Assembly (NCBI GenBank): GCA_008632985.1
Contig: QPGO01000040.1
Coordinates: 315,719-379,718 of the forward strand
DNA from: Psammoneis japonica
Lineage: Eukaryota
DNA length: 64,000 nucleotides
Direction of reading: 5' to 3'
Below the pieces are notes generated by a model. The model was not told where the DNA came from, did no database searches, and saw nothing but the letters and a program-made list of their open reading frames with translations. The position numbers and the translations under genes are program-made. Positions 21,928 to 58,168 of this stretch are shown here, in pieces. Position 1 is the first letter of the stretch; the number at the start of each line of letters is the position of its first letter.

Positions 21928-22307
21928 TTCATTTTCAAAAACAAGTGGCACCAAAAAACTCAAAAACTGACATCATGCGGGTGAGCAAAGTAGATTTTGG
22001 CCATTTTACGAAAAAAATCAAGTAGATTTTTTACTAAAGTCTACTGGATTTCTACCTGTAATCTTAGTACAGTCTGCACGTCACCCTAAAATGTGGAAAA
22101 AGTACAAAGAACCTGTTCTGCATAGAGTCTATTTCGCGCGATAGCGCGCATGACTACCCCAGATTTTCTTGCAGCAGGAGCTCGTTTTCTGACTAATAAG
22201 TAGTTTTCAGGTAAGTAGAAGTAGATTAAGTAGATTTCGAGCTATTTAGCAAAAAAACGTCATGATGTCGGAAGTTGATTTTTTCGGTGCCACTTGGTCA
22301 AAAATGA
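21928..22307. repeat. MITE-like foldback: ~50 bp imperfect inverted repeats enclosing several AAGTAGA(TTT) direct repeats
   Basis: tcattttcaaaaacaagtggcaccaaaaaactcaaaaactgacatcatg (21,928-21,977) matches the reverse complement of catgatgtcggaagttgattttttcggtgccacttggtcaaaaatga (22,261-22,307). Confidence 0.6.
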
Positions 22308-22453
22308 TTTTTTTCCAAATAAAAATAAACTCACGACTGGCCTACGTATTCATGGTGGATGGCAGACAGACGGCGGTGCGTCCACTTTTTCAAAGTCCCA
22401 ACAACCCATTCCCCCGCGATCTTGTTGACTGCTGTGTCCCTTATTTGATCGCG

Positions 22454-24508
22454 ATGAGTCCCAACACGAGCAAGGAAATGAGCGTTTGGGTCCAACTCTA
22501 CATCGGCAAAGAGAAGAGTGGAGATGTCTTTGACATCTGTGAGAATCTGAGGAATGTTAGTCATCTCAAGGAAGCAGTGAAGGAGAAGTGCAAGAATTCA
22601 CTCAAAGACGTTGACGCGCATGACCTCAAGGTGTTCGCCGCGGGTGCACAGCCGGGCCGAGATGAGCCTCTCCGCCCCGACAAGAAGGTTTCAGAGTTGG
22701 ATGAAACAAGTTATGGCAAGCCTCTGGTTGTGGTTGCACGGGGAATGCAGCAGCAAATCGGTGAGTGCATTCTCACGGGTTTCCAATTTGTTGTCGCATT
22801 CTGGTAGTCAATGTATCGTCCAAGAAAATCACTTTGCCAATGTTCTCTCCTGTTCCATATGTTTCAACTTGTTCTGGCTGAAAGTTAACCATGATGGTAT
22901 GTTCCTTGTCGACGTTCAATCGCAAATTCGGGAAATTGCAAAGCGGACGAGTTCAGGTCAAAGAGGATGAAATACGATGGTTGTGCTGAAGCGGTGGCAC
23001 TCGTCAACGCTTTTGAACAAGCCGTGAACGTCGAGTCGGGACATTTAAAATTTGTTTCTGAATTGTGTTCAACTCTACGGAAGCTTTTCTAACTTTTACA
23101 TTCTCGTAACCCGCTTCTAGCGTCCATACAGGCTACTAACGAGTTGCTGCGTGGCGTCAAGAGATACCTGGAAGCTCCCCATGAAAGGCATCCCGGCCCA
23201 ACCCCAATTGAAACTCCAGCAAGTATTGGGTTTATGACAAAGCTAGAGCTGACAGAACACAACGTTTTTCAGCGATTCAAGGAGGTCCCAGGCCAACCGT
23301 CTGTCCTTGATCAAAGCCAGCTTGGCCAGCTATCGGCTGTTTCCGACGAACACCAAGTGATTGCCTTCCTGACTCCATTCTTCGAAGAGATTATCGGTCA
23401 TGATTCCGATATCGGAGTGGTTAATTCAGAAGAGTGCCCATGGCTAGTGACTAGTTCGCACTCATCCAGATTCAACCAGAAACCAGACACCATCTTCTGC
23501 AACAATGCAATATACTCGGCACGCGCTCCTTTCCATACGATAGAACCTGTACTAGTTGGGCTTCGACGCCCGACAGACAAGTTCGGCGCTCTAACTGACT
23601 GGAGGCTTCGTGATTGCATTGATACCACTGGTGAAGGTAAGATCAAAATCGACAACCAAGCTTTTGGCGAAGTGATCAACTACGCAAGACACATTTGCTA
23701 CCATGGGGGTCCCGAGCGCACGAAGCTGTTACTCTTTGATAGGACCGAGTTTTGGCTTGTCTCCGCCGTAAGGGGTGCCATTTCACTCGTTCAGACCTGT
23801 GGCTGGGGCGTCCCGGGATCAAGGCAGATATTGAGGGACTATATTCACCTTGGCCGCTCATCGTGGATCAAGCTTTTAAATGATGCTTGTACTCATTGGC
23901 AACTCACAGTTTCGAGTGATTCGTTTCTCGGAATGGGAAGGTTCGGGCGAGTCTTCAAAGTTTCCAAGCGTGATGAAGGAGGAGGGCGTTCACAGTTTAT
24001 GGCTCTGAAGCTGGTTTTACCAGGAAGGCAGGGTGAACAACCTTTGGAGCTTGATAAAGAAAGAGACTCGTTAGTTCGGACGGCTCAAGTTCTTCCGGAT
24101 GTTGTTGCTCATGTTGAAGGCTTTAATAACTTTGGAGACAATGGAGCCGCGTTGCTCCTTCGTGATGTTGGCGGGAACGTACCACAAAAGGCAAGGCACA
24201 AAGTTTTTGAAGCCCTCGGATTGCTTCATGAAAACGATATCGTACACGGTGATCCTCGTCTTGATAATGCCATTTATGTACAGGAATCAGTACGCTGGAT
24301 TGACTTTCGAACGTCTGCTGTCTTTCTGGACCCAGCAGATATCAAGTTGAAGCGGCGCGACATGACGATTCTTGCGAGGTCTTGTTGCAAGGAAATGTCG
24401 CTCTTAGTTTTGGAACCAATGATCCAGCAATACAACGGGACCAAGGCCTCAGCTCGCGGGATTTCTGATACATTGATGGTCCAGCATCAGCAGGCAGTTC
24501 TAACTTAA
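22454..24508 (+). CDS. Crinkler (CRN/CR)-type protein: N-terminal Ubl-like domain + PD-(D/E)xK REase-like domain + kinase-like domain; exons 22454-22760 and 23121-24508
   Basis: Exon 1 VWVQL...NVSHLKEAVKEKCKNSLKDVDAHDLKVF...PLVVVA resembles CRN N-terminal domains. A phase-1 intron GTGAGT(22761)...TTCTAG(23120) joins the exons in frame. REase-like KPD...GEGK...GEVINY; kinase GMGRFGRVF, ALKLV, HGDPRLDN, IDF. No stops; Tyr retained. Confidence 0.8.
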
Positions 24509-24846
24509 TTACTTGTCTTTCTGCTCTTTCCAGAGAGTAAGTTTTTCAAGTATCCGGTGGTGATCCATGCTATGTATTCGCAATCCCTTTTTCTGCACGT
24601 TACGATATGGCTATCTGCAAATTATGCCTGGGGGTGCCGCGCCGCCACGTCCAGTTTCAAATCCACCTACAATAGTCTAAGTTAATAAAAATGAATAGTT
24701 TTGGAAAAATGACCGTTTTCACGAGAAACCGTCGCCAGTTTCCAGTTTCCACAAGTACCTAGTAGCTACAACCTAGTAGCTACAATGTAGCCTAGCATTG
24801 GGATGTTTAAATAAATGTAAGACTAAGTATGTGGTTAATTTTTTCT

Positions 24847-25700
24847 CTAAAAGTACTGGATGCGTGTGTTGTTCGGTGGTGGCTCAGGAGTTGGAGTTGG
24901 AGGACAATCCTGCAGCGGTGGCTTCTGCTTTCCTGTCCACTCAAGGCGCGGCTTCAAAATGTCAATCTTGCATCGATTCAAACGTCCTCCAAGCCCGCCA
25001 GTTGTTGCCAAGTTTTGTTGACTGGGCCGTTTCTTTTTAATTTGAGCTTCAACCTGGTGGTCCTTCTTCTCGTACTCAAGCATCTTTGCTAGGCACTTTC
25101 TTTGGATGGAGTCACCGTGATCCCAAAAGTTTTTGCTTTTCAGTGTTGGATTCGACAAAGGCAGCCCGCTCCTCTTCTGAAATAACGACATCAATCAGCT
25201 CTAGTGTGTTCGTCACCATGTATTTCTCCGAGAAATTGTTTGGTACCGAAATTTCACTGCATTTACCTGCTTTCAGCAGGCCAAATCGGTGCAACTCCAC
25301 AAGCATTGCAGTTACAGTGGTAGAAGTGCAGAACTTCTCTTCAGCTCGTGCACTGTAGTGCAAACTGGCGACTGCATTGGTCGAGCGCTTGATCGAGCGC
25401 TGGTGCATATCCGTACTAGGCAGCCGAACAACCTGCGGTGCCGAGGGTTCATCACTGCTTGCTGGATCGTGATGCGGGGACTTGTTTCTTGATCCATCTT
25501 CATCGCTGCTCTCTTCATCGAGAGCTCGTTTTAGATTTGGTGGACTCCTCAACAAAGCAAGCTTGGCGGTGGCTGTGGCGTTTGTCTCTCTGAGTTGGGC
25601 CACTTCACCATGCAAGTTTGAGACTGTCTCACAAATTTCGTTTTCCACGGGAAAGTCATTTGGTCAAATGGGCCACGATTCTGCACTACGCGCCGATGCG
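24847..25700 (-). pseudogene. Frameshifted ORF fragment of unknown function (coiled-coil/acidic, probably TE-derived)
   Basis: ORFs 25112-25648 and 24847-25194 appear to join through a frameshift near 25,125. No family recognised. Confidence 0.3.
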
Positions 25701-25899
25701 CATTGTAGAGTTTCAACGCCGCATCGTAGCCACCAGCGGTGCATGTTGCCGTGCCAAGAGAGGGAGTTCACCTGCCATGCTGTTCAGGCAGGAGGTGAGC
25801 GCTGAGACGAGAGAAACAGCAGCGCGGCAACGAAGGATGAAGAGAGATCCGGGCGAAGCGCAGGAAGCGCATGTGACAAGAGAATTGAACCGTTGGAAA

Positions 25900-27420
25900 G
25901 CAAGAACTCATCGTTTCAAACATTCGCTGGAATCAAGTCATCAAGAACTTCAAGATTCAGTGGAAGGCTCTCAAGGCTCACAAGGAAGATGATGAAAACG
26001 GGGTGCCCAAGATCTTGAAGGCACTGCCGGTCATGAAATGGACCGAGGCATTCAAGGACTTCTTGAGTCGAGCAATTGGGAGTCGCGCCATTCCCTCAGC
26101 TTGTGTCATTCGTGAGAGTGAAGACACACCTGTGCAGGCACCAACTCTGTTGGCAAACATGCCTCATTTGGAGAGACATGGTTCCATTGAGGCTGAGTTG
26201 ATGGCTTGAGCTTCCCATGCACATCCGTTTTGTCGAGATGACAACTCATCCGTGCGCCATTGCCTGGAGGAGGCAACTCTCGTGCGATGCATTGTGCAGC
26301 GTCAATTGGACCCTTCCAATGTGGGAATGATGGGTGTGGTGCATGGCTGGCACTGAGGGCCCACTTCAACACTGTTCTTCATGTGTTTGGGTGCTTGAAG
26401 AAGCACCACAATGCCGAGATGGTCTTTGACCCTGGCAACCCCATTGTGGAAGAGGCCCAATTTGAGTCGCACGATTGGACAACAAGTGAGTTTGGTCATG
26501 TTGAGGGTCAGGAAGCACTGCCTCCAAAAATGCCAGAACCTTGAGGACTTGGTTTTGTTGTGCATGCCAATGTCAAGGCAGACCACGCATCTGATGCGGT
26601 CGCCAGGCGACCCAGGACCGGTTTCCTTGTGCGTTTGAATTGTGCTCCTGTCCATTGGTGTGGCAAGAAGCAGATGAGTGTTGAATCATCGTCATTTGGT
26701 TCGGAGTTTGTTGTGATGAAGCAGTGCTGTGAGTGTCTCCATGCTGGGTTGAGACACAAGCTTCAGATGATGGGCACTCCTGTGGAAGGCCCTGCACACA
26801 TCCATGGAGACAACCAGTCTGTTCTGGTGAACACAACGATGCCAGAGTTGACCCTGAAGAAGAAGTTGCAGAGCATCACCATCATCTCGTGTGTGAGGGA
26901 TCTGCTGGGGATGAGTGGAAAACTGCGCATGTCAACACACACGACAATGGAGCCAATTTGTTGACTGAGACCCTCCCTTTTGGCAGCGAGAAGAGGAAGG
27001 GGTTTGTCAGACGACTCCTCCATTGCATCTTTTGCAATGGCGATTGAATTGTGACGGGGTGATTTTTGGGAGTGGAGTGGGCCCGATGCCGAACCACTCT
27101 GGCCCAATGTTGTTTTGCGTGACAGAGTGAGTGTTGTTGCTTTTTTGCAAATTTTGTTTTTCGCGGTGGACGTGGCCATGATGGTGAACCATCGGTGTTT
27201 GTTCGAGATGATTTTGTGAGGACAAGTCAGTCGTGGGTTTCACACCATGACTCAATTGAGAGGAGTGACAAAAATTGGTCATCACTGATGACATCAGCAG
27301 GATGTCTTCCAGGATTGATCCTGAACCTTTTGACAAAATGCTCACAAATTCAATGTGATGCAGAACATTTTGCAGACCATTGGTTTTGACACAATTGTTA
27401 GAATCCCTTTGTTTTTACAA
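25900..27420 (+). mobile_element. Internally deleted Ty1/Copia (CoDi-like) LTR retrotransposon: gag fragment joined to RNase H, PPT and start of LTR
   Basis: Gag-like KWTEAFKDFLSRAIGSRAIP..., DG.GAWLAL. RNase H ADHASDAVARRPRTGF...KKQMSVESSSFGSEF...GDNQSVL...NLLT. PPT GAGAGGAG (27,258-27,265) is followed by TGACA. The LTR end is uncertain. Confidence 0.88.
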
Positions 27421-27627
27421 CGTGATTTTAGCACCGGCACCAAGCAAGTCAGATGTGATTAGACTGAAGAGCAGGATTGCACCCTTGCATTCACTTTGGA
27501 TTGTTCAAGATGTGACTGTGGGCAAGCCTTGGCGCGTGTGGGCTCGTGTGGGACAGCATGTCCGCACACATGATGTGTCCCGCAATGTCCCGCAATGTCC
27601 GTGACGAGTGTCCACATCTGGCTGCTG

Positions 27628-30000
27628 CCGTCCCGTTGAAAAATTTTGTGAACTTTTTTTTTGCAAGTGCAAAATCTCAAGAATGAAAGACAAAATCAAA
27701 AATCGGCTTTCGTGTGACAAAAGCCGATTTTTGAGTTTTGTCATGGTGAGACCCCCAGAGCCCGTGCAAATTAGTGACAACCTTTTGTCCTCAAGCATTT
27801 GTGTGGCATGCAAGCCTGTGTGAATGTTGCAAACTCCAAGAGTGAAATGATGTCGTTAAATGCATCTTTTCATGCCGTGACACACACACGCTTGCCAGAA
27901 AATAAAAAATCTGTCGCCGAACAACAAGCGACAGTTGTTGTCACTTGTGAAATCCCAACACTTTGAGAGAAGGTCAAAGCGTCCCAGAGATGTCCATTCA
28001 ACATGAGACACAATTCGTCTTGAAGAGCTCTTTACGAGCTTTCTCCTGACATGTGCATGACCAAAGGTCATGCATTTTTCGTCTGCCCGTGTGTCTTTGC
28101 TTTTACCCCCACAGCGTGAAATTCTCAATCCGTGGCCATCGGAGTTGCACAAATGCGCATCATCAACAATGACCCACTCACTGTCATCACCGTTTGTGTG
28201 GCATGGCACTTTCATTGACAGGGTCGCCTCATGCATTGTCTGGCACACCTCGTGCCATGCTGGTTGATTGCTGAGGTTGTTTGTGCAGCATTGCCGGTCG
28301 CCGTTTGCACAAGCGCCGATGATCAGGGGTTTCATTTTTGTGTGGAATTTGCATGGGTTTCTACAGGGCGTCATTTTTTGCATCAAGAGTGCGCCTTGGA
28401 TTTGAGCACCAAGTTTGTCATGGATGATTCAGATTGTTGTAATGTGATGTCTAACTGACAATTCGCGTTGATTCATGCCTTGGTTTTGCATCACATCGAA
28501 CTGTGTGGGCAATGCGAGCGGCATTTGTTGCCATGGCCATGTCATTTTTCGCGTCGAAATTTGGGTGAGGCTCATTTTCATTCTTACACAAGATTGTCAG
28601 ATCCAATTTGTTTGTTTGTTTGTGCAATTGTTAGAGCACACATGTGTGCTTGCATCACATCCGTTAAATCCCATGCGCAACATTCGGCTCTGCAGTGCCA
28701 TCATTCTCGTGGGGGGTCTGGGGGGCCAGGCACAAGTTTTCCATTGTGATTCCTGATGCTTTAGAAACTTCTCGTGTGTGCGTTCCTGGGGGGCTGCAAA
28801 CTTTCTCGCGGGGTTGCAGCTACTTTCTCGCGGGATGCACATGTGTGCTTGCATCACATCCGTTGAATCCCATGTGCAACATTCAGCTCTGTGCAGCAGT
28901 GCCATCATTCTTGCGGGTGGTCCTGGGGGGCTACAAGTTTTCCATTGTGATTCCTGATGCTCTAGAACCTTCTCGCGATTGCATTCCTGGGGGGCTGCAA
29001 ACTTTCTCGCATGGGTTCCTCGGGAGAGCAACCTCGTCTGCCCTTTGTTTCAGGACTTTCCCAAAAGTGGTGGGCTCTAGATTGCAAAGCAAAGAATGCT
29101 TCTCACCCTGCTTTGACCACTCTGTGTGACATTCAACATTGGCACCCGCTTGAGCCACCCTGCACAGTGTGATGCAGCAGACACTTGAGCCGCCACTTTT
29201 GACACGACATCAACTGCATCCGCCCCACATGACATGGCATCAACTTGAGCCACCCCAGCATTTTCCTGAGGAAATGTGGACAAAGAACAAACCAAAACAA
29301 GAAGTTGAGAAAACAAAACAACACATTTAATCAACAGAGTCTGTCACCTTCGCAAATGCCGTGGTGTGATGCACTCTCACTGAGAATGTGACAATGAAGA
29401 AACACACCTCGGGTCCAGGCAATCTTTTCATTTGTTTTCATTGTGAGTCAGTTTTTGGTTTGACAACAGCAGGTCCAATGGCATCAACACAAAATCGAGA
29501 ATGCTCATTTTTAGCGGAGATGGCCGTGGTCGCTGATTTTTCCTGCACTGATGTTTCTCTCTTGTGTGTTTGTGTGATTTCAGAAACAGCTGTTTCTGTC
29601 ACATTTTGGCCACGTGGAGGCAAAAGCAAGACAGACACAGATCATCAAGTTTCACTCCACACAGTTCCTGGCATGAAAATTTGTGCAGGGGATGGATCGA
29701 GTTGCTCGGTGTGCACGTGCCTGACCACCCCTGCGGATGAAATGCAAAAAATGACAACACAAAAAGCCCAACATCGATTCAATGGACTGTGACAAAAGAA
29801 CAGCTAGAGTTTTCGTTGCTCAACATGCAAGAATGCCAAATCACGATAAAAAGAATTCACACACAGGTTCTTCACACCCGAGGCTCATCAAACACTTGTG
29901 CACCGCACACTCGGTTATGCACTTCCGCAGGAGATTCCACAGGTTGTGGGGTCTGTGAGGACATCCTGAAAAAAGTTCGCAAAATTTCTCACCGGGACGG
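27628..30000. mobile_element. ~2.4 kb non-autonomous TIR DNA transposon (Tc1/mariner-pogo-like by inferred TA target site)
   Basis: Left TIR ccgtcccgttgaaaaattttgtgaacttttt; right TIR reverse complement ccgtcccggtgagaaattttgcgaactttttt. Flanks are TG (27,626-27) and CA (30,001-02), both one TpA-type change from TA. Confidence 0.7.
28636..29018 (+). repeat. Tandem duplication, two ~180 bp units with a ~200 bp period, inside the TIR element
   Basis: gcacatgtgtgcttgcatcacatccgtt(a/g)aatcccatg...ggggggctgcaaactttctcgc occurs at ~28,636 and ~28,837. Confidence 0.9.
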
Positions 30001-31878
30001 CAGAGGGCATGCCACCGTGGTGCAAAAACCCAGCACATGCACCACCTCACGCACTGTAGAAACCTGCTGCACAAATCCATCATCGTCGCTTCTGCTGTCG
30101 GTCCGGGTGTTCGCAATGAACACAACTTTATGTGTTGACCAGGTTGAAGGTGCTGGAGAGGTTGCGGGGTGTTTGGTTGTTTCCAGAACGCCGTGCTGGC
30201 AGAGAAGCGGTCCGAAATTTGCGACAGTGATTCCGAGACGATTTTCGACGTGTCAGTCGAAGCATCGAGCGATTTGGCAAACAAAAGAAGACAATTTTTT
30301 GCCATCTTGATCGGCTGCGCGAGAAGCGACGTGTCCGACGAGGACGTGAGGGAGTCACTGCGACCGAATCTCGAATCGAAATTGGAGAGAATGGAGTGCA
30401 CAGAGGGCATGCTGGATGTCTTCTTGGAACGCCTGCACTGTGTCAGGGGGGAGGGAGCAACGAAGATGGCATGAAGAAACTTGTCGACCAGCGCTTCGGT
30501 CTTGGCGCCGACGCCACTGCATTGGGCACCAAAGGAACTCCACGCTTGGTGAGAAACCAATGCTTGTTGCCGCCGTAATTGCTGTCATGGAGGAGAAACA
30601 AGAAATGTTTTTATTGTCATCATTTGGAGGCACATCAGTTGAAAGCATCCTCAACTTCGCTTTCTCAAACTGCAGAACAACACAAGAGCTGGCTCTCATG
30701 TGTTTGTTGGAAAAGGCTGGGCTGACCGCAATGCAATTTTGTCAAATGTCCCTCAAGCTCTCTGCGATGACAGGCCTAAGATGCACGAGACTTGAAAGAG
30801 GGCAGGCGGCGTTGCTGACGACACGGTGTCGCAAGACACGGGGTTTGTCGAATTTGATTTCGATGATGAAGACAGCGACGGTGAATGGTGGGGCAGTGTT
30901 GGTGCTTTGTGACATTTGTGCTTCATTGGATCGTTTGAGAGAGATTCAGTTGTGCAGGGGTGTGTTTTCGCGGAAGTTTGCTGGGTTGTGCGGTGAGGCG
31001 ACTGTGAATTCGGCGGCTGGTGACATGCAACTAAAAAGGAGATGATGTTGTGACAGATCTTTCTTTCATCATGGCCAGAGGATTGCCAGAGCAATGACAG
31101 CACAGGCTTTTCCGCATTTCTTTTTGTTTGATCGCTCTTTGGTGCAAAAATGCAGGCATCGCGTCTTCGGAGCACAGCAAGCAGGAATTCACGCAATCTT
31201 GTGTTCTGAGGCCTGATGCAGCCCGGCAACAACACAGGTGAGGAACTCGCTCCCAGCGATGAAAGAGGCAAGAAGCAAAACCATGACAATTTGATCTGTC
31301 ATTCCACCAGCACGTCTCTGCCTGCTGCAGCATTTGCTCTTTGCCGTTGGACGGAGATTTGTTGTCTTTGACAACAGCGAGGGACTTGGAGGTCCCTGTT
31401 CAAAAGGTCGTGGTGACACTGGCTTCAAGGATGATTTCACATGAAGGCAGGCAGGTTGGAGAGGTGCCCTCACTGCCAAATCAACTTTTTAGTGTGATGC
31501 TGAGGACCTTCTCACTCTCGATCCACCTTTTTGCTGATCATGAATGACTCATCATGGAACGCTTTTAAAAAGCAGAGTGGATCATTTCAAGTGTCGCGCC
31601 TGTTGAACAAGCCAAACTGTGGCACTTTGACTGAAGTCAAGCAACTGCATGATGTGGAAGCATTTTTGTCAATGATGTCCTCTCGCCACTAGCTGGGTAA
31701 CAGTCACTCGGGGTCGAGTGTGAAATCGGGCGCGCGTGGGTTCGATGTGCGAGTGAGTGCTTGGGGTTCACGCGCGGCCCACTCCCTGCAGGCAAAGCCA
31801 CACACACATGCACACATGTTGACAATTTAAATTTTTATTTTCAAAATCTGCAGTGGGATCTGCCGGCACGTGAAAACG

Positions 31879-32073
31879 CACTCGAAACGTGTCCACCGAG
31901 CCGGCAGTCATGTGCCGGCCGTCGTGAAAGCATTCCATGTCTGAGAAAGAGTTCGTCAGGGCCGGCGAACAGCACCCCTCCACGATGCGATTGGCACAAA
32001 ATCTACGTAAATGCACAGAAACCAGCGTGTGGCTTCTGTGCAAATTAGAGCTCGTGAAAAATGAGCAGGGACA
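31879..32073 (+). repeat. Dispersed ~190 bp repeat, copy 1 (second copy at 58,320-58,514); probably a transposon terminus
   Basis: Shared gtccacc.agccggcagtc...gagaaagagttcgtcagggccggcgaaca...gagctcgtgaaaaatgagcagggaca. Homology ends at the same base in both copies. Confidence 0.9.
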
Positions 32074-32794
32074 TTTCATTTGTGCATAAAATGTAAAGTG
32101 CAATGATGCAAACAAACATGTGTGTAACAAACGCGGGAAAAAACACGACTCCTCGCGACATCACAACCCCGGTGACGCATCAGACGACGACACCCAGAAA
32201 GCTAAAGAACATGACAACAACAACTCTCTCCAACACACCAATCACATCTGAGGAGGAAATGAGTTCTTTCCTGCATTGTTAAAATGCAGGTTTTCCACAT
32301 TTAATGTGGCAATCCCACTTTTGCAATGTGCAACCCATGTCATTGGCGAGCAACAACAAATTGAGAGTTCTGTGATTAAATTTAAATTTTGGCTGTCAAC
32401 TCACCAAAACAGGCCCCACGTGCTTAATTTGGACTGTCAAATCCTGGCAGTCATGCCACTGTCGCATGACATGCACGACATTGTCTGAGATGCGGTCCCC
32501 GTCATTGAGAACCATGAGCAGACAATTTGGCTCTGTGACCCTGAGCCTTGGCAATTCACTCACTGATCTTTTAGTGCTGCATTTGCAATGACTTTTGTTT
32601 GCTCGTTGAAGGTTGGTTGTTGCTTTGTTTGCCCTTTGCTCAAGGGTGTCATTTGTGTCCTTTTAAGAGCACGCTTCGCATGCCAGAATGACTTTTGTTT
32701 GTGAGGTTGGCAGCCCTTTCACCTTTTAGTTCCCACACCAAAATTTGATCAAATCATCAACTGTGTCTGCGCTGTGGTCTTTGACACAATGATG

Positions 32795-33623
32795 GCCATT
32801 GTCAGCAGAATGGAGGCAGCTGTGCATGTGTTGGACAGGCCACAAGTGACTTGAAAAAGAACCAGCACCAGCCAAACCCAGCTTGACTCTTGTGTCTGAC
32901 ACCTGCAGCAACCTTTCCAAGACTTGCACTTCCTTGGAGTTTCATGACTTGCAAAAGTGGCAAGTTGGACTCTAGACTGTCAAATGTTGCACCCACACCA
33001 ACCAAGCCCATTGCCAACCCTGCTGCCATCTTCATTGTCAAAGGAGCTGGCAACGTGGGATTTTGTGATGCACAAGGGACAAGGGAGATTCTGTTGTTGT
33101 GTTGCTGGCAGATTGCAAGACAAGAACAATTGCAACAGAAACTCCAGCTGCCAAAGCACAACTCCAAAAACAATCAAAACACAGAGATTTCTTGTCTGTC
33201 CTCTGTCAACTGCATCCTTTGCAACCTCAGTTTCTGTGATGAGAGACACTTGCTGAAGGCCAGCGCTCCATTTTTGCAGATGCTCATTCTTGTCCTCAAC
33301 TGGCTGGGCAAGCTGTGCTTCCACAAGAGTGGAGCTGGCATCCTTCTGCAGTGCCAGCCCCAACTTGGATGACTGAACAGTCTTGAATTCATGCATGACT
33401 GTGCAGAGGTGTCATCACCTCAGCCATGTAGAATGGGCCTCCTGCATCTGATGGCAGCAAAAGCACTGACATGTTTGGTGCTTTGGAAGCCTTCATGTGC
33501 ATTCACAACATGCCTTCCACCAAACTGTTCTTTGTCAAGCAAAGTGTTGCAGGCATTTGCAGGTGGGGGGGATGTCACAGATCTGCCCCCCCCAATGCCG
33601 AAATGCTTGCAAGTGTGTCATTG
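32795..33623 (-). pseudogene. FG-GAP membrane-protein pseudogene, piece 2 (middle), paralog of 46,400-47,255
   Basis: e.g. tgtgcatgtgttggacaggccacaagtgacttg / tgtatgtgatggactggctataagtgacttg; KMAAGLAMGLVGV vs KMATGLVMGLVGV; STLVEAQLAQPVED vs SILVEAQLAQPVED. Confidence 0.9.
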
Positions 33624-34199
33624 CATCAGAGGGCTCGACATTTTAATGTCTGTGTGTTTGGCCCTCCATCTGTGTCTGCATTTTAAAAAGTCTTTGCTCT
33701 GTGTGACAGTTTCTGCTTTTTGTGTGACAAACAAAAAACTCCCAATCTTCACATCTGAAAGCTCTCATCTTCTGCTTTTTCACATCTCTGCCATTGTCAC
33801 AAGGACATGCAGCAGTTGACAATTTGCTGATTGTTGCGTTTGCACTTTCTGCCATTGTCATCATGTAAAGCATGTAAAGCATGCACTGCATGTTTGTCCG
33901 ATCAATCTGATTTTTCCTCTCCCTTCTTCCCCGTGTCTCTTTCATTTCATGCAACATGCCTCGCCTCTCCAAGTCCTGCATGGCCACCACTGCCAGGTCA
34001 CTTTTGTCATCGTCTCCAAACAGAAAAGCCAATGCATGACCTCTTGGTTCTTGGCGGACACCCGTCATTGGCAGAATCTCCCAAACATCACCCTCCCAAA
34101 CCTGTGGCATGTTGTTGTCTCCATGTCTTGGCAACGTCTTCTTTTTCATTGCATTTTTCTCCTTTCTGGGCCCTTTTGCCTTTGTCTTTTCTCCTTTCC

Positions 34200-37100
34200 C
34201 AACCCTTTTTCCTTTGTCGTTGTCTTTGCGACCACTGTCTCAAATTGAAGAGTTTTGAAGCAAAGGTTCTACGATGCACGCAACATCTTCCCACTGGTTT
34301 CTTGATTCTCCGTGACAACATTTCACTGTGCGCCCCAGAAAAAAATCATGATTGCGACCACTGGCTTCACACATTGTTTGGGACCTGCAACAAGGCTTCT
34401 GTTTGCATCAACTTTTTGGAGAATTTTCTTGCGCTTGGTCACCACGAGACAGCCAAGGACGAAGACCCTGTCTCGTTCCCTGTTTGTGTCAAGACGCTCT
34501 TCTGCACTCATGACACCTCCTGGGAAGAGCCTCTCAGGATGGCAATGATGGACATCAAACGTGAACAAATGTGTGCTCGTCATGTCAATGCTCAGCTCTT
34601 GAAGTGTGTGAAAAACAACAATGTTGTTTCCACTGCCAACGATTCTGGCAAAAGCAAATGTGGACGTGATCATTTTGAATCAATGCAAGTCAGTGCAATC
34701 CTGAAAAGGTTGGCAATGCAGTTCCCTTTGCAATGAAAAACGCCAAGAAACAAAAATTTCAGAAAGGCAAGATTGCAACACAACGCCGTGACTCCTTTGG
34801 TTTCTCATTGTTCTTTTTACCTTGTCCCTGTTCCTCTGCTTCTCCTCCTCCTCAGACTCCCTTTGCTCCACTGGCACCAGTCTCAGTGTGCCAAATGATG
34901 GCGCAACTTTTGACACATCTCCAGGTGAAATGCAGTCACTCCAAGACATTCCAACTCTAGAGGAACAAATCACTGATTCTCGCAAATTGTGGCCATCGCT
35001 CAGTGCGATTGCTTCCTTGCCTCCTCCCTTGCCTGAAAATTTCACAAAGGAGGAGCTTGAAGATGTTTTTTCCGGAGCCCTGCCTCTCCACTTGCAATTC
35101 CTGGCGACATGCAGAAACAGCATTCTCACCTTGTTGCATTTGAGGAAACTCCCATTTCTGGTGGCTTTCAAGGGGAATTGTGTGCAGCACCAGCTGTTTC
35201 ACAGCAGCTCTGGTTTTTGCTTGGCAAACGACATTTGGAAGTTTCTGCATGGTTTTGAAAATGGCCAGGCTCCCAAGAATCCAATGACCGAATCTGTGGT
35301 TGCAATTGCCCACCCTGCCCAGTCATCCTCTCATGTTTCAGAGGTGATCACTTGTCTTTGTTGCACAGACAAGATGTCTCAGAAATGCTTCTTTGGATTG
35401 AGATTCAGTGTTGCGTCAATCCTCTGCACCGTTTTGGAACACGGAGAGGCAAACAAGAAATGTGATGGAGCAGAATGCCAGCTGTGCTGTTGGATCCGGT
35501 TTGGTTGTTGCGGCCAGAACTGCAACATTGCTGACAGTGACTCAGCACTTGCAGGGCTGATGCACAAGCCTGGTGCAATCTGCTGAAAGGATGATTGGTC
35601 CAAGCTTCCAAAAAATGTTCAGTTGATGATGGCTTCAATGTTGGATGCCATGCAACTCTGTGATGATGAAATCCATGCGGCTGCTTTGAGGCAAATGCGC
35701 TCCTTCAACGACCCTGCACCAGACAGTCTTTTTGCAGCTTCACTTCAAGAAATGATTGGAGCAGAGCACTTGCAATGTGAGAACATTGAAATGCAAGCAA
35801 AGTGCACATCATTCTCTGCCCCAAGAGTTGAGACACGGAAAACCAAGCTCCACAGGGACAAGGAAGGTTGTGACAAGGAGGGACACACCAAGACAAGTGC
35901 TGGTCCCTCAAGCTTGTCGCTGCTGGATGAGCAAAAGCCAGCATTTGTGTTGAATCCTTGCATGGTTGCGCCAACTTTCGATCATGCCTCAAATGTCATT
36001 TTGCAAAACTTGATCTTTCCCATGCCGCAGAAAAGTTGCAACGCTGTGGCCCTTGTCGTCCTCCCTCTGGCAAGCCAAGTCACTTGAACATTGAAGATTT
36101 TTTCCTTGACCAACATTGTTCCTGGGTCAACAAGGACATTGGAAAAAACAACGAGCCATCAGAGAAGGGAAAGCATCCAGCTGTTGTTGTTCCAAGGATC
36201 CATCGTCCATTTGCAGTTGTGCGTGATTTAAATTTTCACTTGGTGCAACAGCGCCAATCAAAAATGTCCATGTTGTCGGTGTTTTGCAACTGCATTTGTC
36301 ACTCTGTGGTTGGTGGTTGGCAGACTGGATTCTCCTGTTTTTGCTGCTTGTGGTGCAACACCGATGGACAAACCCACCCTTTTGAGGCTGGTGATTGGGT
36401 CCTTCATTGTTTCCAAGAAGCTGCAAGGACATTCAGCAGCATTGTGGGTGACCGCAACAACCAACGTTGGCAGACACCAGGTCTGCACTTTGAAGATGTG
36501 TTTGTGTCAGAGTGTGGCACAAAACTGAATGGCTTGATGGACTTGATTGTCGCTGGTGCAGTTGACGCAATTGACTGGATCAACAAAAATGTTGGAAAGT
36601 CATCTTTTCATCATGAGGCAATTGAGGACAAGTTCAAAAGCATGGCTTCAACATGGGAAAGCAAAGGCGCAGACTGTGGAGAGTTCCGGCTCATGACCGC
36701 CATTCAGCTGTTGTCGCTGTGCTGTGTTGGAATCAAGCCTCACCCTGACTTGCGCAATCTGGTGTGTCCCGCAGCAAAGTTGGGGGGTGCAAAGCAGATG
36801 GATGAAATGAAGGCCCCCAATGATCAGCGGGGCACACTTTTGGGATGGATGTTGGCCAATTTCGATGTTGCCCACTTTTGCAAGAATGGTCCAGAGTGTT
36901 TGCTCTGCAAGCTTGGCACAGCTCAGGAGAAAATGGGTGTCTGCAATGTCTTTTGTTGTGGGCAGCATCTTTTTCTGTTGTTCTCTGATGGTCAATCAAT
37001 GATCAAGAAATTTGGAACATGCACTTGGGAGCCTGTGTTGTTTGTCTCCATTGACAAAGTCCAAGTTGAACTCCAACGGCAAGACGATGAAGAGAATCCA

Positions 37101-37300
37101 CAGCTGTTGTTTTGCCTCGCGTTGACCGTCATTGTCCCAACATGTTTTTTCAATCGATTGCAACCAAAACAGGAAGGCAGCTGCTGTGGACATGTTGTGG
37201 TTGGCTTCCAACTGGATTGGAAACTCTTTGGAAGCATCTGTCAACTCGTTGATGGACAGTGATGGAGATGGTGATGCGGTGGCTTTTAGCAACAATGATG
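34200..37300 (+). pseudogene. Large degenerate accessory ORF(s) of the 9.1 kb element, function unknown
   Basis: Collinear long ORF fragments 34822-35586, 35623-36087 and 35958-37262, all Tyr-free. Confidence 0.4.
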
Positions 37301-38271
37301 CCACTGATGTTCAAATGAAGCCAGCACCAACAAAAAGTGCTGTTGTTGCAAATCAGTGACTTGTTTGGAGGGTGACCAAGTCATGAAGCAAGTTGCCATC
37401 TTGTGCGTCATGCGACATCCATGCCAGACTGACCGCACCTTTCTGACCACACCTTTCTGCTCCAACATAAATCTAGATGCCCAAACAATGTGCTTTGGTT
37501 GGCAACAACACGTCCGGTCAATGCAAGGAATCTGTCATGTGCTGAACTGTGCTCAGCCAAGGGGGTGGCATTGGTTTCCTCTGATCAACACCAAAGAGAC
37601 AAGGCGTGCGCAATGGCATTTGAGGAATTCAGTGCGATGTTGACAGTCGCATTTACACTGTTTCAATCCAAGATGGTCACAAAGACCTTCATCACAACTG
37701 CAGCGCATGTTCTCGTGATTTTGTGCATCAAGTCAAGGATCACTTTAGCATGGTGGTCGATTTCGAGCATCGCAGTTTCAATCAAATCATGTTGGACTGC
37801 TGCTGGATGCCAGATGGAGAGTGGTGTGATGCTCATTTTGGAAGCAGTCAGTTCTTCTGAAATCTCATTGAACTGCAAAGCACACTCTCTGAGAAGGTGG
37901 GGGACGCGTTGACAGTGATTCCTTTTACTCAGGCCATGTTGAGCCAACTGCAAAGACACTGGATGGAACTGCATGCTGCGTTCCAACTTTGCACCATGGA
38001 TGCCGATCAGGCAAAACAAAGTTTGAGTCTTTTCCAAGCAAGTGACCTTGTTGGCTGCAACAAACAGGAACTGTGGTTGGGGAAACCGTCGGATCAGGAA
38101 GATGCACACCTGGGATTGTCCGAGCAACATCTCCTCACGTGCACACCAGAAGTGAGCCGCACTTGATGACATGGAATGTGTCAAGTTCCTGGCATTTGGA
38201 AGGAAATTGTAGACGACAATCGTTGATGCCTTCAATGTGCACAAGTCTCACGAACAATGGTGTTGGTTGCG

Positions 38272-40604
38272 TTAAAAAAGATCTGGCCAAATGGCCCTTC
38301 TGTCTTGCACCACCCAAATGTGTCTCATTTTTTCTTGTGTTTCCACTGCTCCTGGTTCTTCTTCATGCACCATTGCATTGTCTCTCATGGCCTCTGTGGG
38401 GACCACATGCAGATGAGGTGAGAAGACTGTTTTCTTGGGAGATGAAAGCCAGTGGTTTCTCTTTTGATCTAACAGCCAGCGACTGACCAGGTTTGTGTGC
38501 TGCAAACGTTGCCTCATGCTCCTCACGTCGGATTGATGAGTGCATGGATGGACCACGGCAAAAAGTGATCCTGCATCCTCTTGTTCAAAAAAACACAGCA
38601 AATGGGAGGGAAATTGTTGTTCACCTTGTCGGGTGCCAAAGGCAATGCAGGCAAAGTCGCACCATGGTCCTTCGCTGTTGCAGTCTGGGTGTGCATGGCA
38701 CACATCCTTTCCATTCTTGTTGCAAAACTCTGTCCTGCACAAGAGTGACAAATCATCATCACCTTGACCCACACATTCCTCCCATTTCTCTGACATGAAA
38801 TTGAGCAACACAGGATGAACCTGGCATTGACTCTGTGCACCATTCCATTCCCATCTCACAGCACCTGTCACTTGGCTGCAAGTGAGAGCAAACGTGCTTC
38901 CTCCCAGCTTGTGGTTTTCCACAACATTGGAGTCCTTTTCCATTTGTTTTGTTTTAGGCAAGATCCAGCCATTGGCAGAGATGGCAAGGTTCAGCTGCAT
39001 TTGATCCTTCATCCATGACACTGCCTGCTTTAAGAAGGTGTCTGGGCTCCGTTGTTGAGCGGTTGACAAGGGAAGCTTGAAAAAATCCTTCAGGAGGCAT
39101 TCAACCAACCCTGCATCAAAATTCATTGCGCGGTGACTGTGGTGAAGAAACACACAAAGATGGAGTGTTTCATTTGGCTTCTGAAGCTTCCACCCACAAC
39201 CATTGCTTCTTGGAACAAAATGAACCATCCTGGCAATGAGAAGGCAAATTTTCTTGTTTGTCTTTTGCATCAACCGTCTTGGAGTTTTGCGAGTGATGGG
39301 TGGGTTGCCATGTCTGTGCCATGCATGAAATGCAAGAAGATCCTCCAGCAACTGCATGAACAGCTGTGCACTGCAGTTGAGTTGTTTTCCCTTGTAATTT
39401 TTTTTCTTTTGGTTTCCTTGCTCATCCTCATCATCATTCTCACCCCCAGGAAGACATCCAACAGGTTTCCAGATGCTCTTGTCAGACCATTTGTCAAAGG
39501 CTGCGTGACCGGAGGTCATGATTGCAGGTTCACCACAATGGGATCCCACCCCCGCTGTCCGACCTGTTTTGTCGACGCAAATGATGTTGCTCTCGAGAAA
39601 TTCTTTCTCTGGATCTGTGGTCCGCTCTTTGCTGGTGTGCCTGTGCCACTCTCCAGCCAAACACACTTGTCGCCCGGTCCCTTGGCCTTGCACTTTCCAA
39701 AAGGGTTGTCTGGATTGGCCATGTTCTCTCTGCTGCACCACAGGTGAGGGTCAAGTGAAAACTGCTCCCAGACTCCAACAAAATTCCACCTGGGCACTGA
39801 CACACATTGTGGCAAACCGGTTTTGCCACTGGTTGTCTCTAGCATCACAGGTGCAGACTTGCTGGGTGGCAGAGGGAAGTGCATTGTCAAGGTGCACATC
39901 AACTCTTTTCTACGTGGAAGAATTGTGCCAAGCACTGTGGTCTTGTTCCCAGTGTGCCGCTTGATGAACTCAACAATGCAGTCGTACAATTCCAGGGGGG
40001 CACCATGTGTGTCCATGAGCTTCTTGCACAACTCTGCACATGCCCCATCAAGATTGGTCAAAGAGGGAGCGGAAGCCAAGGCATCTCCTGCTGGTTCAAT
40101 GTGCCTGTCACCCAATCGATCATCAGGAATTTCATCTGGTTGCGCAGATTCCTCCATTGTCATGTCCAACAAGGCAGAGAAGGAGTGACCACTGCCAAGA
40201 TCCAAATCGTTCATGGCAACAACATCACAAATGCTGTGATCAGATGACATGGACGACAAGTCATCCACACCATGTGGTGTGTCTGGAGATGGGAACAAGG
40301 GGCTGCTGGGATGGGTGCTGTCTGCAGAGCGGGGTGCCAACCTGCTACGAGCAGATTGCTGGAGATGGAATTCTTCATTGTCAGAGGATGAACCAGAAAA
40401 ATCTCCAGTTGAAGGAGCGTTGCAACTTTCACTGGGTGGCCCGCCTGTTGAAGATGGAATGTTGCTGTCATCACGAACTGTTTGATTGGCTTGCAACTCT
40501 TGGGCAGTGGAGTGACACCCAGGTTCACACCTCCAATGCACAGCAATTCTCAAAAGGTTTTTGCCACAGCCAGGACAGAGGATCGGGTTCCCTTCCATTG
40601 ACAA
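38272..40604 (-). pseudogene. Plavaka-like transposase pseudogene (internally deleted and frameshifted)
   Basis: IICVDKTG...GEPAIMT; FHAW; PRSNGCGWKLQK..ETLH...NFDAG..E..LKDFFK.P..TAQQR; HAHPDC.SEGPWCDFA (compare YRAHPNY...GPWYD). Family assigned from remembered motifs. Confidence 0.7.
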
Positions 40605-41069
40605 TCAAACAACATTGAGACGGTTGTCATTCACTGAGAATCATCATCCTGGCATTGTTGTGGTGAGAGAAAGTGGAACAAGACACAAAAAATGGCTTGA
40701 AAATTGCAACACTGCAATCCATTTTAGATTTGAGTGATTCTTGTGGGCATGACATGTTTGCATTTTGGATTGTGTCATCTTGATCTAACAATGGACATCA
40801 ACTTTTGCGAATGCTGTCAATGGACAGAACATCATTTCCGTTCAAATGATGTGACCACAACAACAAAAACACAAGTTTTGCAATTCATTGTTGCATGCAA
40901 ACATGTTTTCAAACTTTGATGTTGCTTGCAATGATGCACTCATTGTTTGAGAGGAACAAATTCCAAGACTCAAAAAAAAAGAAATGCTGGCTGTTGCTCA
41001 ACACGACCCAAATGACAGTTGCAGATCTCCGCGGCACACAAACAACTCATTGTTGCAGTGGAAAGAGCA

Positions 41070-42335
41070 AGATGTCATCTAGAGAGCAGCCAGCAGCAAA
41101 GAAGAGGAGGACAACAGAGCCTGTGGCCATGAGCCCAAGGCTTCAGGCAGCATTGAAGCAAGCAGGTGCACAGGCAGTGCATGATGCAATGAGACATGAA
41201 GTCAAGAAGGTGGCTGCAAATGAACTCTTTGCACACAAGTTGAGTTCGCAAGTGCATCAGAAATGGCAAGCAATGGGAACATCTCACTGTTTGTCAAGAA
41301 GAACATTGCTGGTGGCAACATGGACACCACAAATTGGTCAGGAGCTTGGGAGGAATGGGCAAGGAAGGCGGCAAACAGGCAAATTGACAACAAAAGAAAC
41401 ACCGTGTGTTCGGAAATCAGCAAGGATGCAAAGGCATGTGAGTGAAGTGATGCGCGTGTGTGAGTCAAGAGGTGCGTGCATCTCAAAAGAAGAGGATGGT
41501 GGCTCTTTATCTTTGCAGGCATTGTCACCCAAGAAGAGGGAAAGGAAAAAGAAAAGAGGCTCAAGACAGCAGCCACAAGGAGGAGGGGTGCCAGAGGAAG
41601 GAAGAAAAGTGCGAGTCAAGACGAAGAAATCCCGCATGTGCTGACTTGGGATGGATTTAGCCTGTTGAAAACAACCGGCAAAAACAGAAGAACAAGCAGG
41701 CATGCAAGTGGTTCTATGATCACATCCTCTGTCACACCAAGAGCAAGAAGGCATGGAGCAGCATCATCAAAACAGGAGAGGTCAAGGCGACTGAGCTGGC
41801 TGCAATTGCTGACGAAGCTGTGGCACTCTTGGCGATTGAAAATTGTTGGAGTGTGCAGGCACACCAAAAGAAAAAGGAGATGGCAAAGGAAGTGGGTGAG
41901 GAAATGGACCAACAAGAAAAGGTGCCCAAGCCTCTCTGCACAAAGCCAAAGAGTCAGCACAAGTCTTGGGGAGAGAAAGGAATCGCGCACTTCAACGAGT
42001 TCTGCAAAGAGGTGATGAAAGACAGAAACTCCAAGGATGGTCAGGAGTTTGACAGGTGGCATGCAGAGCTCAAGAAGAACAAGTGTGACAAGTCAGGAGG
42101 AGAAAAGAAGAAGAAGAAGAAGAAGAAGAAGAAGAAGAAAGCCCCAAGCAAGGGTCTGGAAAGGTGGAGGCAATGAACATCCTCACATTGGACAGCAGCG
42201 ACAAGAAGAGTGGAGACAACAGGCAGGATGAAGGAAGGAAGGATGCCACGGATGCCAGAACAGAGCAGCAAGCAGAGGAACAAGCGTCGGAAGAGGAAGA
42301 CTTGTCGGAACTTGGAGATGATGGCAATGACTCTT
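41070..42335 (+). pseudogene. Degenerate accessory ORF divergent from the transposase
   Basis: ADEAVALLAIENCW...PLCTK...SWGEKGIAHFNEFCKEVMKDR...EFD. Includes a (GAA)n tract at ~42,105-42,140. Confidence 0.5.
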
Positions 42336-42725
42336 AGAAGGAAAATGCATCAATGGCTTTGTTCAACGTAAGAGCAACCAAATGTTCATGGTTGAAAACA
42401 GCAGTTGACAGAAAAACATTGGGTTGCTGCATCACAAATGCAGTGGGCAATTGTCGTGACAGTGGAAAGCATTTCTCTTTCAAACAGCATGTTTGCAAAA
42501 TTCGGTGAATGAACCCTGCCACAAAATTGTGATGTTTTGTTGGAACATGGTGATCAGGTGAATTTTTCAGCAATGTGAAACCATTGAAGGAGGAACAACT
42601 AATTTGTTGAAAAAATTGTCAATGGCCAAGTTTGTTGTGGCTGATTTTTAACAATTTGTCACAACACATTGCAAAAATGTCACTGTGTAAATCTGCACAT
42701 TGTTGCAATGTCAAGCCCTCTGATG

Positions 42726-43385
42726 TGCCTCCACCATGTCAAATGGACCACCCTTGACTCACAGCTCACAGCAACCAAACCATCCACAGCTTCTGCTTTG
42801 TTGCATTTCTCTCAAAAAGAATGCCAGTTCCAACTGGTGCCATGCATGGTGGAAACTGTTTCATTCAAAGCAGTTGCATCACATCCATCAGCACCTGAGT
42901 GGCCCCTCTTGCACTTCTCATTGGGAGACTCACAATGTCCAGCAGTTTTGTTTTGTCTTCAAGTCCATCTTGTGCTCCTTTTTCTGCTTGCTTTGAACTG
43001 CTGTGATGACAAAAGCCCTGTTGCATGTTTTCCTCTGCAGCTGTGCTTCTTCCACAGCCATTTCTGCCTGTTTCTCACATTTCTGTTTTTCTTGTTCAGT
43101 GGCTGGCACCTGGCACACTTCTGATTCATGGCTTCTGCACTTCTCTTTTTGATGAAGCAAGAGAGCAGAGAGTCAAATCTGCAGCTTTGTTGGAAGCTTC
43201 AAGCTGTGTGGCAATGAAACAACCAGATGTTCTCATTGCCACTCCATGCTTGTTGCCTGTCTTCACAAAGCACAACATTTGATTGTGGGGGTCACATTGT
43301 TCAGCCACCATTTGTTGAATGCTCCCCCAAGCTGGAGCTGCTGAGTTGCTTCTTTCTGCATGGTGATCCACTGTTTGACACCGCC
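42726..43385 (-). pseudogene. FG-GAP membrane-protein pseudogene, piece 3 (5' end and upstream), paralog of 47,254-47,910
   Basis: cctccaccatgtcaaatggaccacccttgactca / cctccactgcgccgaacggaccgcccttgactca; ttgggagactcacaatgtccag is identical; EKQKCEKQAEMAVEEAQLQR vs EKQKSEKQAETTMEKAQLRR. Confidence 0.9.
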
Positions 43386-45095
43386 CAATGATCCATGATG
43401 TTGTGTCCAGCGCTGGCAGTTGCAAGGAGAACTGCGATGGAAGTCTGTCTGTGCAAAACAGTTTTTGCGCACACTTTTGCACTTTTGTCCGTTCCTGTTG
43501 AGGATGTGAGCAGGAAACTCAAAACTGCGCTGAAGTGGTGATGGGGTCAGCACCTCTGGAAGAAGGTGCAACATCTCCTGCACCTGGTGAAACATCTTCT
43601 GGCAACAGCTGGAAGAAAGTCCACCACACAGGAAATGGAAAAGACCTCACATGCCAAAGTTCTAGAAGCAAAACTCCCACAACTCTTTTGTGGAAACCTG
43701 AAAGTGGTTGAAAGATCACTTGAGCATGTTGTCTGTTGCTTCTTGCATGGACTTTTGCTTTGTGGGCAGGGTTGGAAGTTGCTGGATTCACTGTTTTAAC
43801 ACCCTGCCACTTCCAGCCAGATCCAAAATGCAAACACCCAGCACAGTGGGAACCATTGGATGCTTCTTGACAGGATGGACGGACAAACCAAACTCTGCTG
43901 CTGGAGCAGCTGCCTGGCAGCAGCAGCTAGCAGCTGGAGAGCACCATCCACCAAGAGCAACAAAGTTCATTTCCTTCAAGAGGAGAATGCCCAATTGGCA
44001 TTGGGAGGTTGGCAGATGGCCATGCTGTCATTTGTTGGACCCCTGCCAAGACGAATGACCTTGCCATGAAAAGATTTCGTGTCTGTGTGTTCAAAACCCT
44101 TAAATCAGGTGAGTGAACGTTTTCGGTGGAGCCTAAAATTCTGTTGTTGAATCTATGAATCACTGGCAACAATCCAGTGTGTGCAATTTATTTTTTCAGT
44201 CCTTTGTTTCATGTCTCTCTTGTCCTCACACTGCTGTGAAATTTGTTGGGCAAAGAAGCAAAACACGACACAAAAGGGAGCAAAAGCTCTTGTTCATTGG
44301 TTGTTTTCTGTGAACGAAAACAACTGCAGGCACAAATGAAATGCATGTGTTGGGATGAATGATGACTTTGAACACGTGTAAAAGATTGCAAACTTAATTT
44401 AATCAACAGAGCGCAGAAAGCAAGTTACAAAGAGTTGGTTGCAATCGTTTTCAACGCACCTGACTGTGTTTTGTGATTGGATGTAAGAACAGAGGTTCAC
44501 CAAAGATCACTGGCTGTGGAGAAGGACAACACTTTTTCATTGACCATGAATCCGGTTGCACAAGATGACCGATTGTTGGCCCGCTTGCCAAACGATTGCT
44601 GGTAAAAATTCGAGGAGCTGATGCACATGACGGACGAAGCAAAAGAACAAATTGCAGCATCAAAACATGATGCAGCCAGCGACGAGCTTGACCGATTGTT
44701 GGTGCAATCGACAAGCTCTGAAGGGAGTGTAGATTCCAACGTGGATTGGGAGATGTGGTTCAAGGAAGGGAGGAGGGAACACATAGATGACCCGCACCTC
44801 CGCCGTGACTGCATGGACATGTTTCACATGTTGCAACTTGCAACACTCCAGTGAATGGAGTTCGAATGATGATGAGGACCTCAAGGACCCACCGCTGTAC
44901 TGTATCGTCACTCTAGCTCGCCGTTCCATTCCACTCAAACCCATGCTTCCTCTAAGAACACTGAAACGCGACAGTCCGTGTTGCTCCTGTCTTGCTTTCA
45001 GCGATCTTTCCCGACGGGCTCTTCAAACGCAACAATGGCGACACACCAATGCGTTGATTTGAATAAAAAGGCGGTGACAATAATATGATGAATTT

Positions 45096-58050: not shown

Positions 58051-58168
58051 ACGCAATGGATGAAAATGGCGCTGAACGCATCGCATGTTTCGTCATCAAG
58101 GTGCGGCATGTCGCAAGTCACAACTCGCGGTGTCGCGGTCAGCGGTCAGTCGTCGCATGGCCCTGCTT

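Follow-up and report, generated by a model that had tools for sequence, protein, structure and literature searches.

TA dinucleotide loss from a dead FG-GAP gene copy in the diatom Psammoneis japonica is likely targeted by genomic position

Introduction

The closest described counterpart of the process considered here comes from the rhizarian Bigelowiella natans, in which, according to the main text of a recent preprint, A:T to G:C changes at TpA made up 230 of the 231 mutations recorded in a pair of viral inserts (Mettrop et al., bioRxiv 10.64898/2026.01.13.699255). The same text reports a TpA mutation rate of ~6e-7 per site per generation, a ~1000-fold elevation, in mitotic asexual lines; a main insert that is single-copy and silent; ADAT2 as a proposed candidate; and long-term clusters in which TpA is low and CpA+TpG high and that are rich in transposon domains (10.64898/2026.01.13.699255). 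In the available text of the respective sources, RIP is described as premeiotic, homology-based, and C-to-T (PMC2330156, PMC5445492); diatom transposon islands as CG-methylated by DNMT5 (PMC9998398); an editor derived from E. coli TadA as preferring UA, with an optimum of CUACGAA (10.1101/631721); and AMT1-type 6mA as located at ApT in active genes and hardly mutagenic (10.1101/2024.10.28.620566).

Here we analyze a 64,000-nucleotide stretch of the stramenopile diatom Psammoneis japonica (the window; assembly GCA_008632985.1, contig QPGO01000040.1, positions 315,719 to 379,718, forward strand). As in the preprint's account of B. natans, TpA has been changed to TpG or CpA on both strands within confined regions, and neighboring genes are spared. 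The two cases differ in target, extent, and lineage: viral inserts with a main-region observed/expected ratio (o/e) of 0.45 in a rhizarian, as against a host-gene copy and transposons with o/e of 0.00-0.1 in a stramenopile diatom. The TA loss is accompanied here by CG loss and a flank preference, while the preprint's main text makes no mention of diatoms, CpG, sequence context, or trinucleotides. In B. natans, the mutation rate was measured; here, sequence gives a rough lower bound on its excess over background. The phenomenon has therefore already been described; neither that main text nor the literature searched yielded its occurrence in another supergroup, an erasure close to complete, a target that is a host gene, the separation from CG loss, or the flank preference. 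In that literature, which covers subscription journals thinly, we found no account of TA loss of this kind from a diatom.

As far as the preprint's main text and the available accounts of RIP define them, the locus shows the testable features of the B. natans process and lacks those of RIP. Like ascomycete RIP, the process leaves dense dinucleotide transitions that ruin repeats and duplicate genes. However, RIP creates TA, whereas here TA is removed and CA/TG is raised to 1.7; and RIP targets are defined by homology, whereas here one copy is erased and the borders ignore homology. DNMT5 methylation followed by 5mC decay, as described, is likewise island-like on repeats and accounts for that half of the changes in which CG became TG or CA, but it cannot alter A:T pairs, and TA loss here is faster and separable. 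TadA/ADAT2 enzymes and adenine base editors, in the accounts available, share A-to-G change, a 5′ T/U preference, and best activity with a following C, as seen here; their natural substrate is tRNA, whereas here the enzyme is putative and the strand-specific preference weakly supported. AMT1-type 6mA, in its published description, resembles the present case in that an adenine is marked within a dinucleotide that is symmetric; 6mA at ApT was ruled out, AT o/e being unchanged here (0.86 vs 0.90).

Dead copy and spared paralogs

The FG-GAP sequences in the window are as follows:

19765..20333, minus strand: 3′-side piece of the dead FG-GAP copy; matches 45790-46400; 0 TA, 1 CG
32795..33623, minus strand: dead FG-GAP copy, middle piece; corresponds to 46413-47244; o/e 0.04 for TA and 0.06 for CG
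42726..43385, minus strand: 5′-side piece of the dead FG-GAP copy, with non-coding upstream DNA; matches 47254-47910; 0 TA, 1 CG
45096..47701, minus strand: gene A, an FG-GAP repeat membrane-anchored protein and the copy's closest relative; TA o/e 0.53, CG 0.92 (both computed with upstream DNA to 47910)
48230..50893, minus strand: paralog B, an older FG-GAP duplicate; ~70% identical to A at the DNA level, with a dN/dS of 0.26; TA o/e 0.59

The three pieces match consecutive parts of gene A (45790-47910) and are a single truncated, probably tandem copy of that gene, interrupted by two insertions; no 3′ part of gene A was found upstream of piece 19765-20333. Non-triplet gaps in the pieces number 5, 7, and 11, and dN/dS against gene A is near 0.7. 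Identity between 32810-33615 and 46413-47244 is ~79%, with background divergence from gene A of ~16% outside TA and CG. A previous sequence-only reading of this DNA had called the paralog intact; this holds for its TA content, but not for its frame, which has one break near 45738 in the present assembly. Paralog B has three such breaks (~49205, 49415, 50480), and those in either gene may reflect assembly error, small introns, or true pseudogenization. Contigs of both runs have one gap within 45120-47066. Homologs of gene A are 31-49% identical, too distant for DNA-level polarity.

Among the 32 gene TA sites aligned between 46413-47244 and 32810-33615, the copy keeps 1, with 13 changed to TG, 12 to CA, and 6 to other dinucleotides. 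None is kept in the other two pieces (0/10 in 19765-20290 and 0/16 in 42783-43385); the sequence-only reading had described the middle piece's pattern as extending to 19765-20333 and 42726-43385, and the eight pairs of gene and copy motifs that it had quoted were all located where it had placed them. Pooled over the pieces, the copy keeps 1/57 TA (one fewer site than the per-piece sum, owing to alignment ends) as compared with 1109/1637 other dinucleotides (Fisher p 8e-26), and sites with TA in the gene and TG or CA in the copy outnumber the opposite arrangement 45 to 0 (binomial p 6e-14). CG erasure in the copy, absent from the earlier account, is as strong as that of TA: 4 of 94 CG are kept and 73 are changed to TG or CA, with CG o/e of 0.03-0.06 among the pieces. 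The three-way alignment with paralog B that had been proposed places 103 changes on the copy branch and 45 on that of gene A; where A and B have TA in common, the copy has it at 0 of 8 sites. The TA loss rate on the copy's branch is at least ~28-fold over background, as a rough lower bound.

Over five pairs of sequences, the A-to-G rate is 0.42 after T, 0.12 after A, 0.11 after C, and 0.06 after G. Both strands are affected, with 35 TG and 38 CA outcomes over the same pairs; a strand-run test found no runs, the two outcomes being randomly interleaved. RNA editing followed by retro-copying was ruled out, because strand use is even and the non-coding upstream DNA is erased as well.

Contigs of run X1, which may derive from the window's own sample and so serve as a check on the assembly rather than as independent support, span the middle piece (32126-34190, with 3 other and 9 gap letters), the piece at 42 kb into the 3′ flank of gene A (42147-45058; 4 other letters), and gene A (45034-49201; 2 other letters, 1 gap), at a depth of 58-66 across the copy pieces and gene A alike. 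Since the erased sequence is reproduced in these contigs, it is not an assembly artifact.

The claim that only one member of the pair was hit also stands: gene A and paralog B are undepleted, and the loss of synonymous TA from the paralogs that the earlier reading had set against its own interpretation is absent. The synonymous TA share is 58/215 (0.27) in gene A and 54/177 (0.31) in paralog B, as compared with 86/422 (0.20) over seven ORF stretches of five neighboring genes, which are possibly not single-copy; if anything, the paralogs are higher (p 0.07 for A, 0.01 for B). The same reading had cautioned that selection on the live copy could produce the asymmetry. Among the 57 sites, 36 are synonymously removable and 8 lie upstream of the start; all 44 are kept in the gene and lost in the copy, so site-by-site selection on the protein fails to explain the difference. 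If selection on the live gene purged entire bursts of mutation, silent sites linked to it would escape as well; this form of the caveat is weakened, because outcomes are interleaved at random and paralog B is untouched by TA erasure despite its three frame breaks in the assembly.

Insertions within the copy

Two insertions separate the pieces, one of which contains a spared island:

20334..32790, no strand assigned: insertion 1 (12.5 kb), separating two pieces, with a 12-base direct repeat on its two sides
21991..25417, plus strand: spared island within insertion 1; TA o/e 0.58, CG 0.90
33624..42725, no strand assigned: insertion 2 (9.1 kb), DNA transposon; TA o/e 0.05, CG o/e 0.35

The direct repeat of insertion 1 (20322-20333 and 32791-32802) has one mismatch. 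Changes that set it apart from gene A occur in both of its members, and the copy had thus probably begun to decay before the insertion landed. Insertion 1 contains part of a glycerol-3-phosphate dehydrogenase gene, a remnant of copia RNase H, whose one named relative is from Thalassiosira exigua, and other repeats; its main low-TA parts have TA o/e of 0.01-0.13 and CG o/e of 0.62-0.79. Insertion 2 has 19-base terminal inverted repeats (33624-33642, 42707-42725) matching at 18/19 positions, with TG on either side. Its predicted ORF may represent a decayed Plavaka-like transposase, for which the commonest phylum among the matches is Bacillariophyta; we treat this as a lead only.

The dehydrogenase fragment (20334-21982; FAD type, CG 0.68) is TA-erased, looks captured, and begins exactly at the insertion 1 junction. 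In the island at 21991-25417, a Crinkler-type N-terminal domain (Pfam PF20147, scoring over the cut-off) precedes an ORF of 471 aa that is kinase-like; the island's left border falls inside a small element with 36-base inverted repeats (21942-21977, 22261-22296), one arm of which is eroded. The sparing of this gene-like island could reflect either activity or youth. A 2.4-kb element nested in insertion 1 (27625-30003) has 35-base terminal inverted repeats and a 200-base internal tandem pair (28639-29010). A dispersed high-depth repeat (31731-32145 and 58193-58590; read depth ~1100) has partly lost its TA.

Domain borders and duplicate pairs

A two-state model divides the window into low-TA domains (41.4 kb in all, individually 4-22 kb; TA o/e 0.07, CA/TG 1.7) and normal domains (20.2 kb; TA o/e 0.58), with GC unchanged; borders fall at ~21985, 25425, 44378, 57007, and 60561. 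The domains and duplicate pairs discussed below, for none of which a strand is assigned, are:

6..21982: low-TA domain with piece 19765-20333; TA o/e 0.064
25434..31683: low-TA domain within insertion 1; TA o/e 0.092, CG 0.66
32428..44377: low-TA domain with the middle and 5′-side pieces and insertion 2; ends ~1 kb past homology
56488..57615: second duplicate pair, copy crossed by a domain border at ~57007; the partner, 59067-59864, is erased over its whole length
58627..59029: erased member of the third pair, a copy of 62868-63300; 1/21 TA kept

The domain at 32428-44377 ends 0.7 kb from the stop of gene A. Beyond the end of homology, 43386-44377 is still erased (TA o/e 0.10, in a single-depth contig), and no homolog of this flank was found within the window. 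In the second pair, the border cuts through one copy, leaving 25 TA in the 520 bases left of 57007 (the gene-rich side) and 4 in the 608 bases to the right (p 1e-5); across 59067-59724, the partner has lost these TA at every point. The second and third pairs are likewise one-sided (1/18 and 1/21 TA kept), with the erased copy always in a low domain, such that mixed-position pairs are one-sided in 3/3 cases. In the high-depth repeat at 31690-32425, which may be young, the remaining TA (0.31) exceeds that of the single-depth pseudogene. Erased targets comprise transposon remnants and embedded host-gene copies (the FG-GAP copy and the glycerol-3-phosphate dehydrogenase piece).

Fungal RIP normally mutates both copies of a duplicated sequence. 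Here, because the loss has sharp domain bounds, continues past homology, and stops partway across the second duplicate, position is a better reading than pairing; together with the untouched paralog B, this bears out the sequence-only reading's preference for position over homology pairing. The TA-targeting process likely picks its targets by genomic position, unlike the pairing of duplicates in RIP, and the targeting is best explained by position within a silenced, transposon-rich domain. The positional cue may be chromatin state, transposon context, or guidance by RNA.

Decayed LINE-like ORFs that contain N gaps occupy the left end of the window (1-6900); with TA at 0.12-0.21 and CG at 0.70-0.82, they seem to represent erasure at a younger stage.

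Separation of TA loss from CG loss

Because insertions 1 and 2 split the copy, they are younger than it, and the nesting offers a relative clock: CG o/e is 0.03-0.06 in the copy, as against 0.35 and 0.62-0.79 in the younger insertions, while TA is at most 0.13 in all. The insertions thus have almost no TA left and much smaller CG loss, which argues against TA loss being a side effect of 5mC decay; the insertions may, alternatively, have been TA-poor on arrival, from eroded donors.

Related copia loci elsewhere point the same way. Among the best 80 of 483 confirmed related metagenome loci, 11 combine CG o/e <0.45 with TA of 0.45-0.87, TA and CG have a rank correlation of 0.08, and one locus alone, L061, is TA-erased. 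Deamination of 5mC alone fails as an explanation, given that TA is lost ahead of CG and that these CG-eroded loci (11 of the best 80 of 483) keep TA. L061 is 70% identical to the window's copia remnant, with 0 TA in its first 690 bases at a CG of 0.77 and with conserved TA changed to TG or CA at 9/10 sites; the remnant itself shows conserved Tyr replaced by Cys or His and keeps 0/9 conserved TA. This environmental fragment (L061, 1-1448) has a TA-erasure border at ~690-1000 and mostly keeps its CG. Of the 120 copia RNase H relatives listed, 11 have Tyr-to-Cys/His changes at conserved columns, and 10 of these have ≤2 Tyr in the protein; since the query is itself erased, the search favors such relatives. 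No Tyr-to-Cys/His trend was found within eight other copia clusters (3-14 members listed in each), which, together with L061, indicates a process that is present beyond this assembly and patchy. A scan of viral contigs by copia alignment gave 64 pattern matches, none of them confirmed. Two JGI copia proteins that are 93% alike (P0088 and P0178) differ in that 4 of 6 Tyr in one are Cys or His in the other, a within-family snapshot of the change outside the source genome.

Sequence preference and recency

Against expectations derived from CA/TG flanks, the 180 TA surviving in low domains include 2 RTAY (44 expected) and 101 YTAR (39 expected; p 7e-31). The YTAR bias appears in all four low domains, with TCTAGA and TTTAAA-type sites predominating. 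A strand-specific TAY preference was not significant in a direction test (26 vs 16, p 0.16); RTAY survivors are rarer than an additive single-strand model predicts, which hints at duplex-level recognition.

The 40 listed differences between the window and X1 contigs are the best supported of 686 rather than a random sample, and some contigs may represent other copies; they comprise 14 entries forming 7 CA/TG doublets, 15 at CG, 6 at TA, and 5 others. As 35 of the 40 are TA, CG, or CA/TG-swap changes, such changes seem to be recent. One doublet lies inside the middle piece (33467-8), in a contig otherwise 99.9% alike, and could have passed through TA or CG.

Proposed mechanism and alternatives

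The account that we favor, with moderate confidence, is that A-to-G changes on one or the other strand removed TA from the copy because it lies in a sharply bounded, transposon-rich domain, where a TA mutator likely acts on silenced DNA and the presence of a partner sequence is irrelevant. The existence of a position-based TpA mutator is the part that we regard as highly probable; whether its chemistry is adenine deamination is evenly balanced. The mutator would probably be an adenine deaminase of the TadA/ADAT2 kind. Gene A would have undergone tandem duplication, and the copy would have been silenced and CG-methylated, with CG loss representing 5mC decay after DNMT5-type methylation of diatom repeats. 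The mutator would convert A to inosine at TA, which replication would read as G, over many cell divisions; the two later insertions would have split the copy and then been erased in turn.

Because TA is palindromic, a lesion on T is indistinguishable from one on A. The same positional targeting could then act through another chemistry, either a modified or damaged thymine at TA (5-hydroxymethyluracil, for example) or error-prone patch repair of the polymerase-eta type, triggered when deaminated 5mC is repaired; we consider this rather unlikely. Thymine modification occurs in other algae, polymerase eta prefers WA, TA and CG are lost in common domains, and the flank effect appears partly duplex-level, all of which such chemistries would accommodate along with the symmetric change of TA to TG and CA. 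However, a WA mutator predicts a raised rate at AA, where that rate is 0.12 as opposed to 0.42 at TA; moreover, TA loss precedes CG loss, also where CG is mostly kept, and CG-eroded copia loci elsewhere retain TA (11/80, from the best 80 of 483; rank correlation 0.08).

An improbable reading is RIP-like pairing, in bursts on both copies, with lineages hit in the live gene purged, or acting only once identity had dropped too far for the copy to pair with gene A. That every one of the window's three erased copies is a duplicate is consistent with it, as are the ~16% background divergence outside TA and CG and the RID-related DNMT4 that some diatoms are described as encoding (PMC9998398). Against it stand a domain border that crosses a duplicate, erasure that outruns homology, TG and CA outcomes interleaved without strand runs, an untouched paralog B that is frame-broken in the assembly, and a high-copy repeat (31690-32425) whose remaining TA (0.31) exceeds that of the single-depth copy. 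The mutation polarity is also opposite to that of RIP, and the main B. natans target, in the preprint's text, is single-copy (bioRxiv 10.64898/2026.01.13.699255). Hardly credible is the view that no mutator acted on the copy and that errors in assembly or polishing, normal drift, or a gain of TA in the live gene produced the difference. Some sites in the three-way alignment do have TA solely in gene A, but the erased sequence is present in X1 contigs, TA shared by A and B is missing from the copy at 8 of 8 sites, entire domains of 4-22 kb are TA-poor, and the copia remnant has exchanged Tyr for Cys or His and kept 0/9 conserved TA.

Beyond the position-based mutator favored for this locus, we tentatively propose that some diatoms may possess a heterochromatin-tethered genomic adenine editor, RTAY-preferring, that permanently disables silenced DNA, whether transposons or redundant copies of genes, without a homology search; it would be common to these diatoms and rhizarians, patchy among diatom lineages, and would decide which duplicate dies. 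The B. natans preprint, in its main text, leaves target choice open, and the natural controls at this locus (the live gene and its dead counterpart, nested insertions that differ in age, and a border across a duplicate) point to position rather than pairing. If this is right, a second eukaryotic supergroup would have a mutation-based genome defense, with polarity opposite to RIP; duplicates in gene-rich DNA could survive, unlike under RIP; and, diatoms being transformable, the enzyme could be found.

False open reading frames

Erasure of TAA and TAG stops and of Tyr codons leads to long, Cys/His-rich false ORFs and to skewed repeat dating. A Harbinger-like transposase remnant at 14780-16072 (Pfam Plant_tran) has an open frame that lacks Tyr and is rich in Cys and His; a homolog search with this ORF gave a single weak match, from a plant. 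An ORF with a MYND finger (57578-58117) lies in a low-TA domain (TA 0.09, CG 0.82), and its frame may be open because stop codons were erased.
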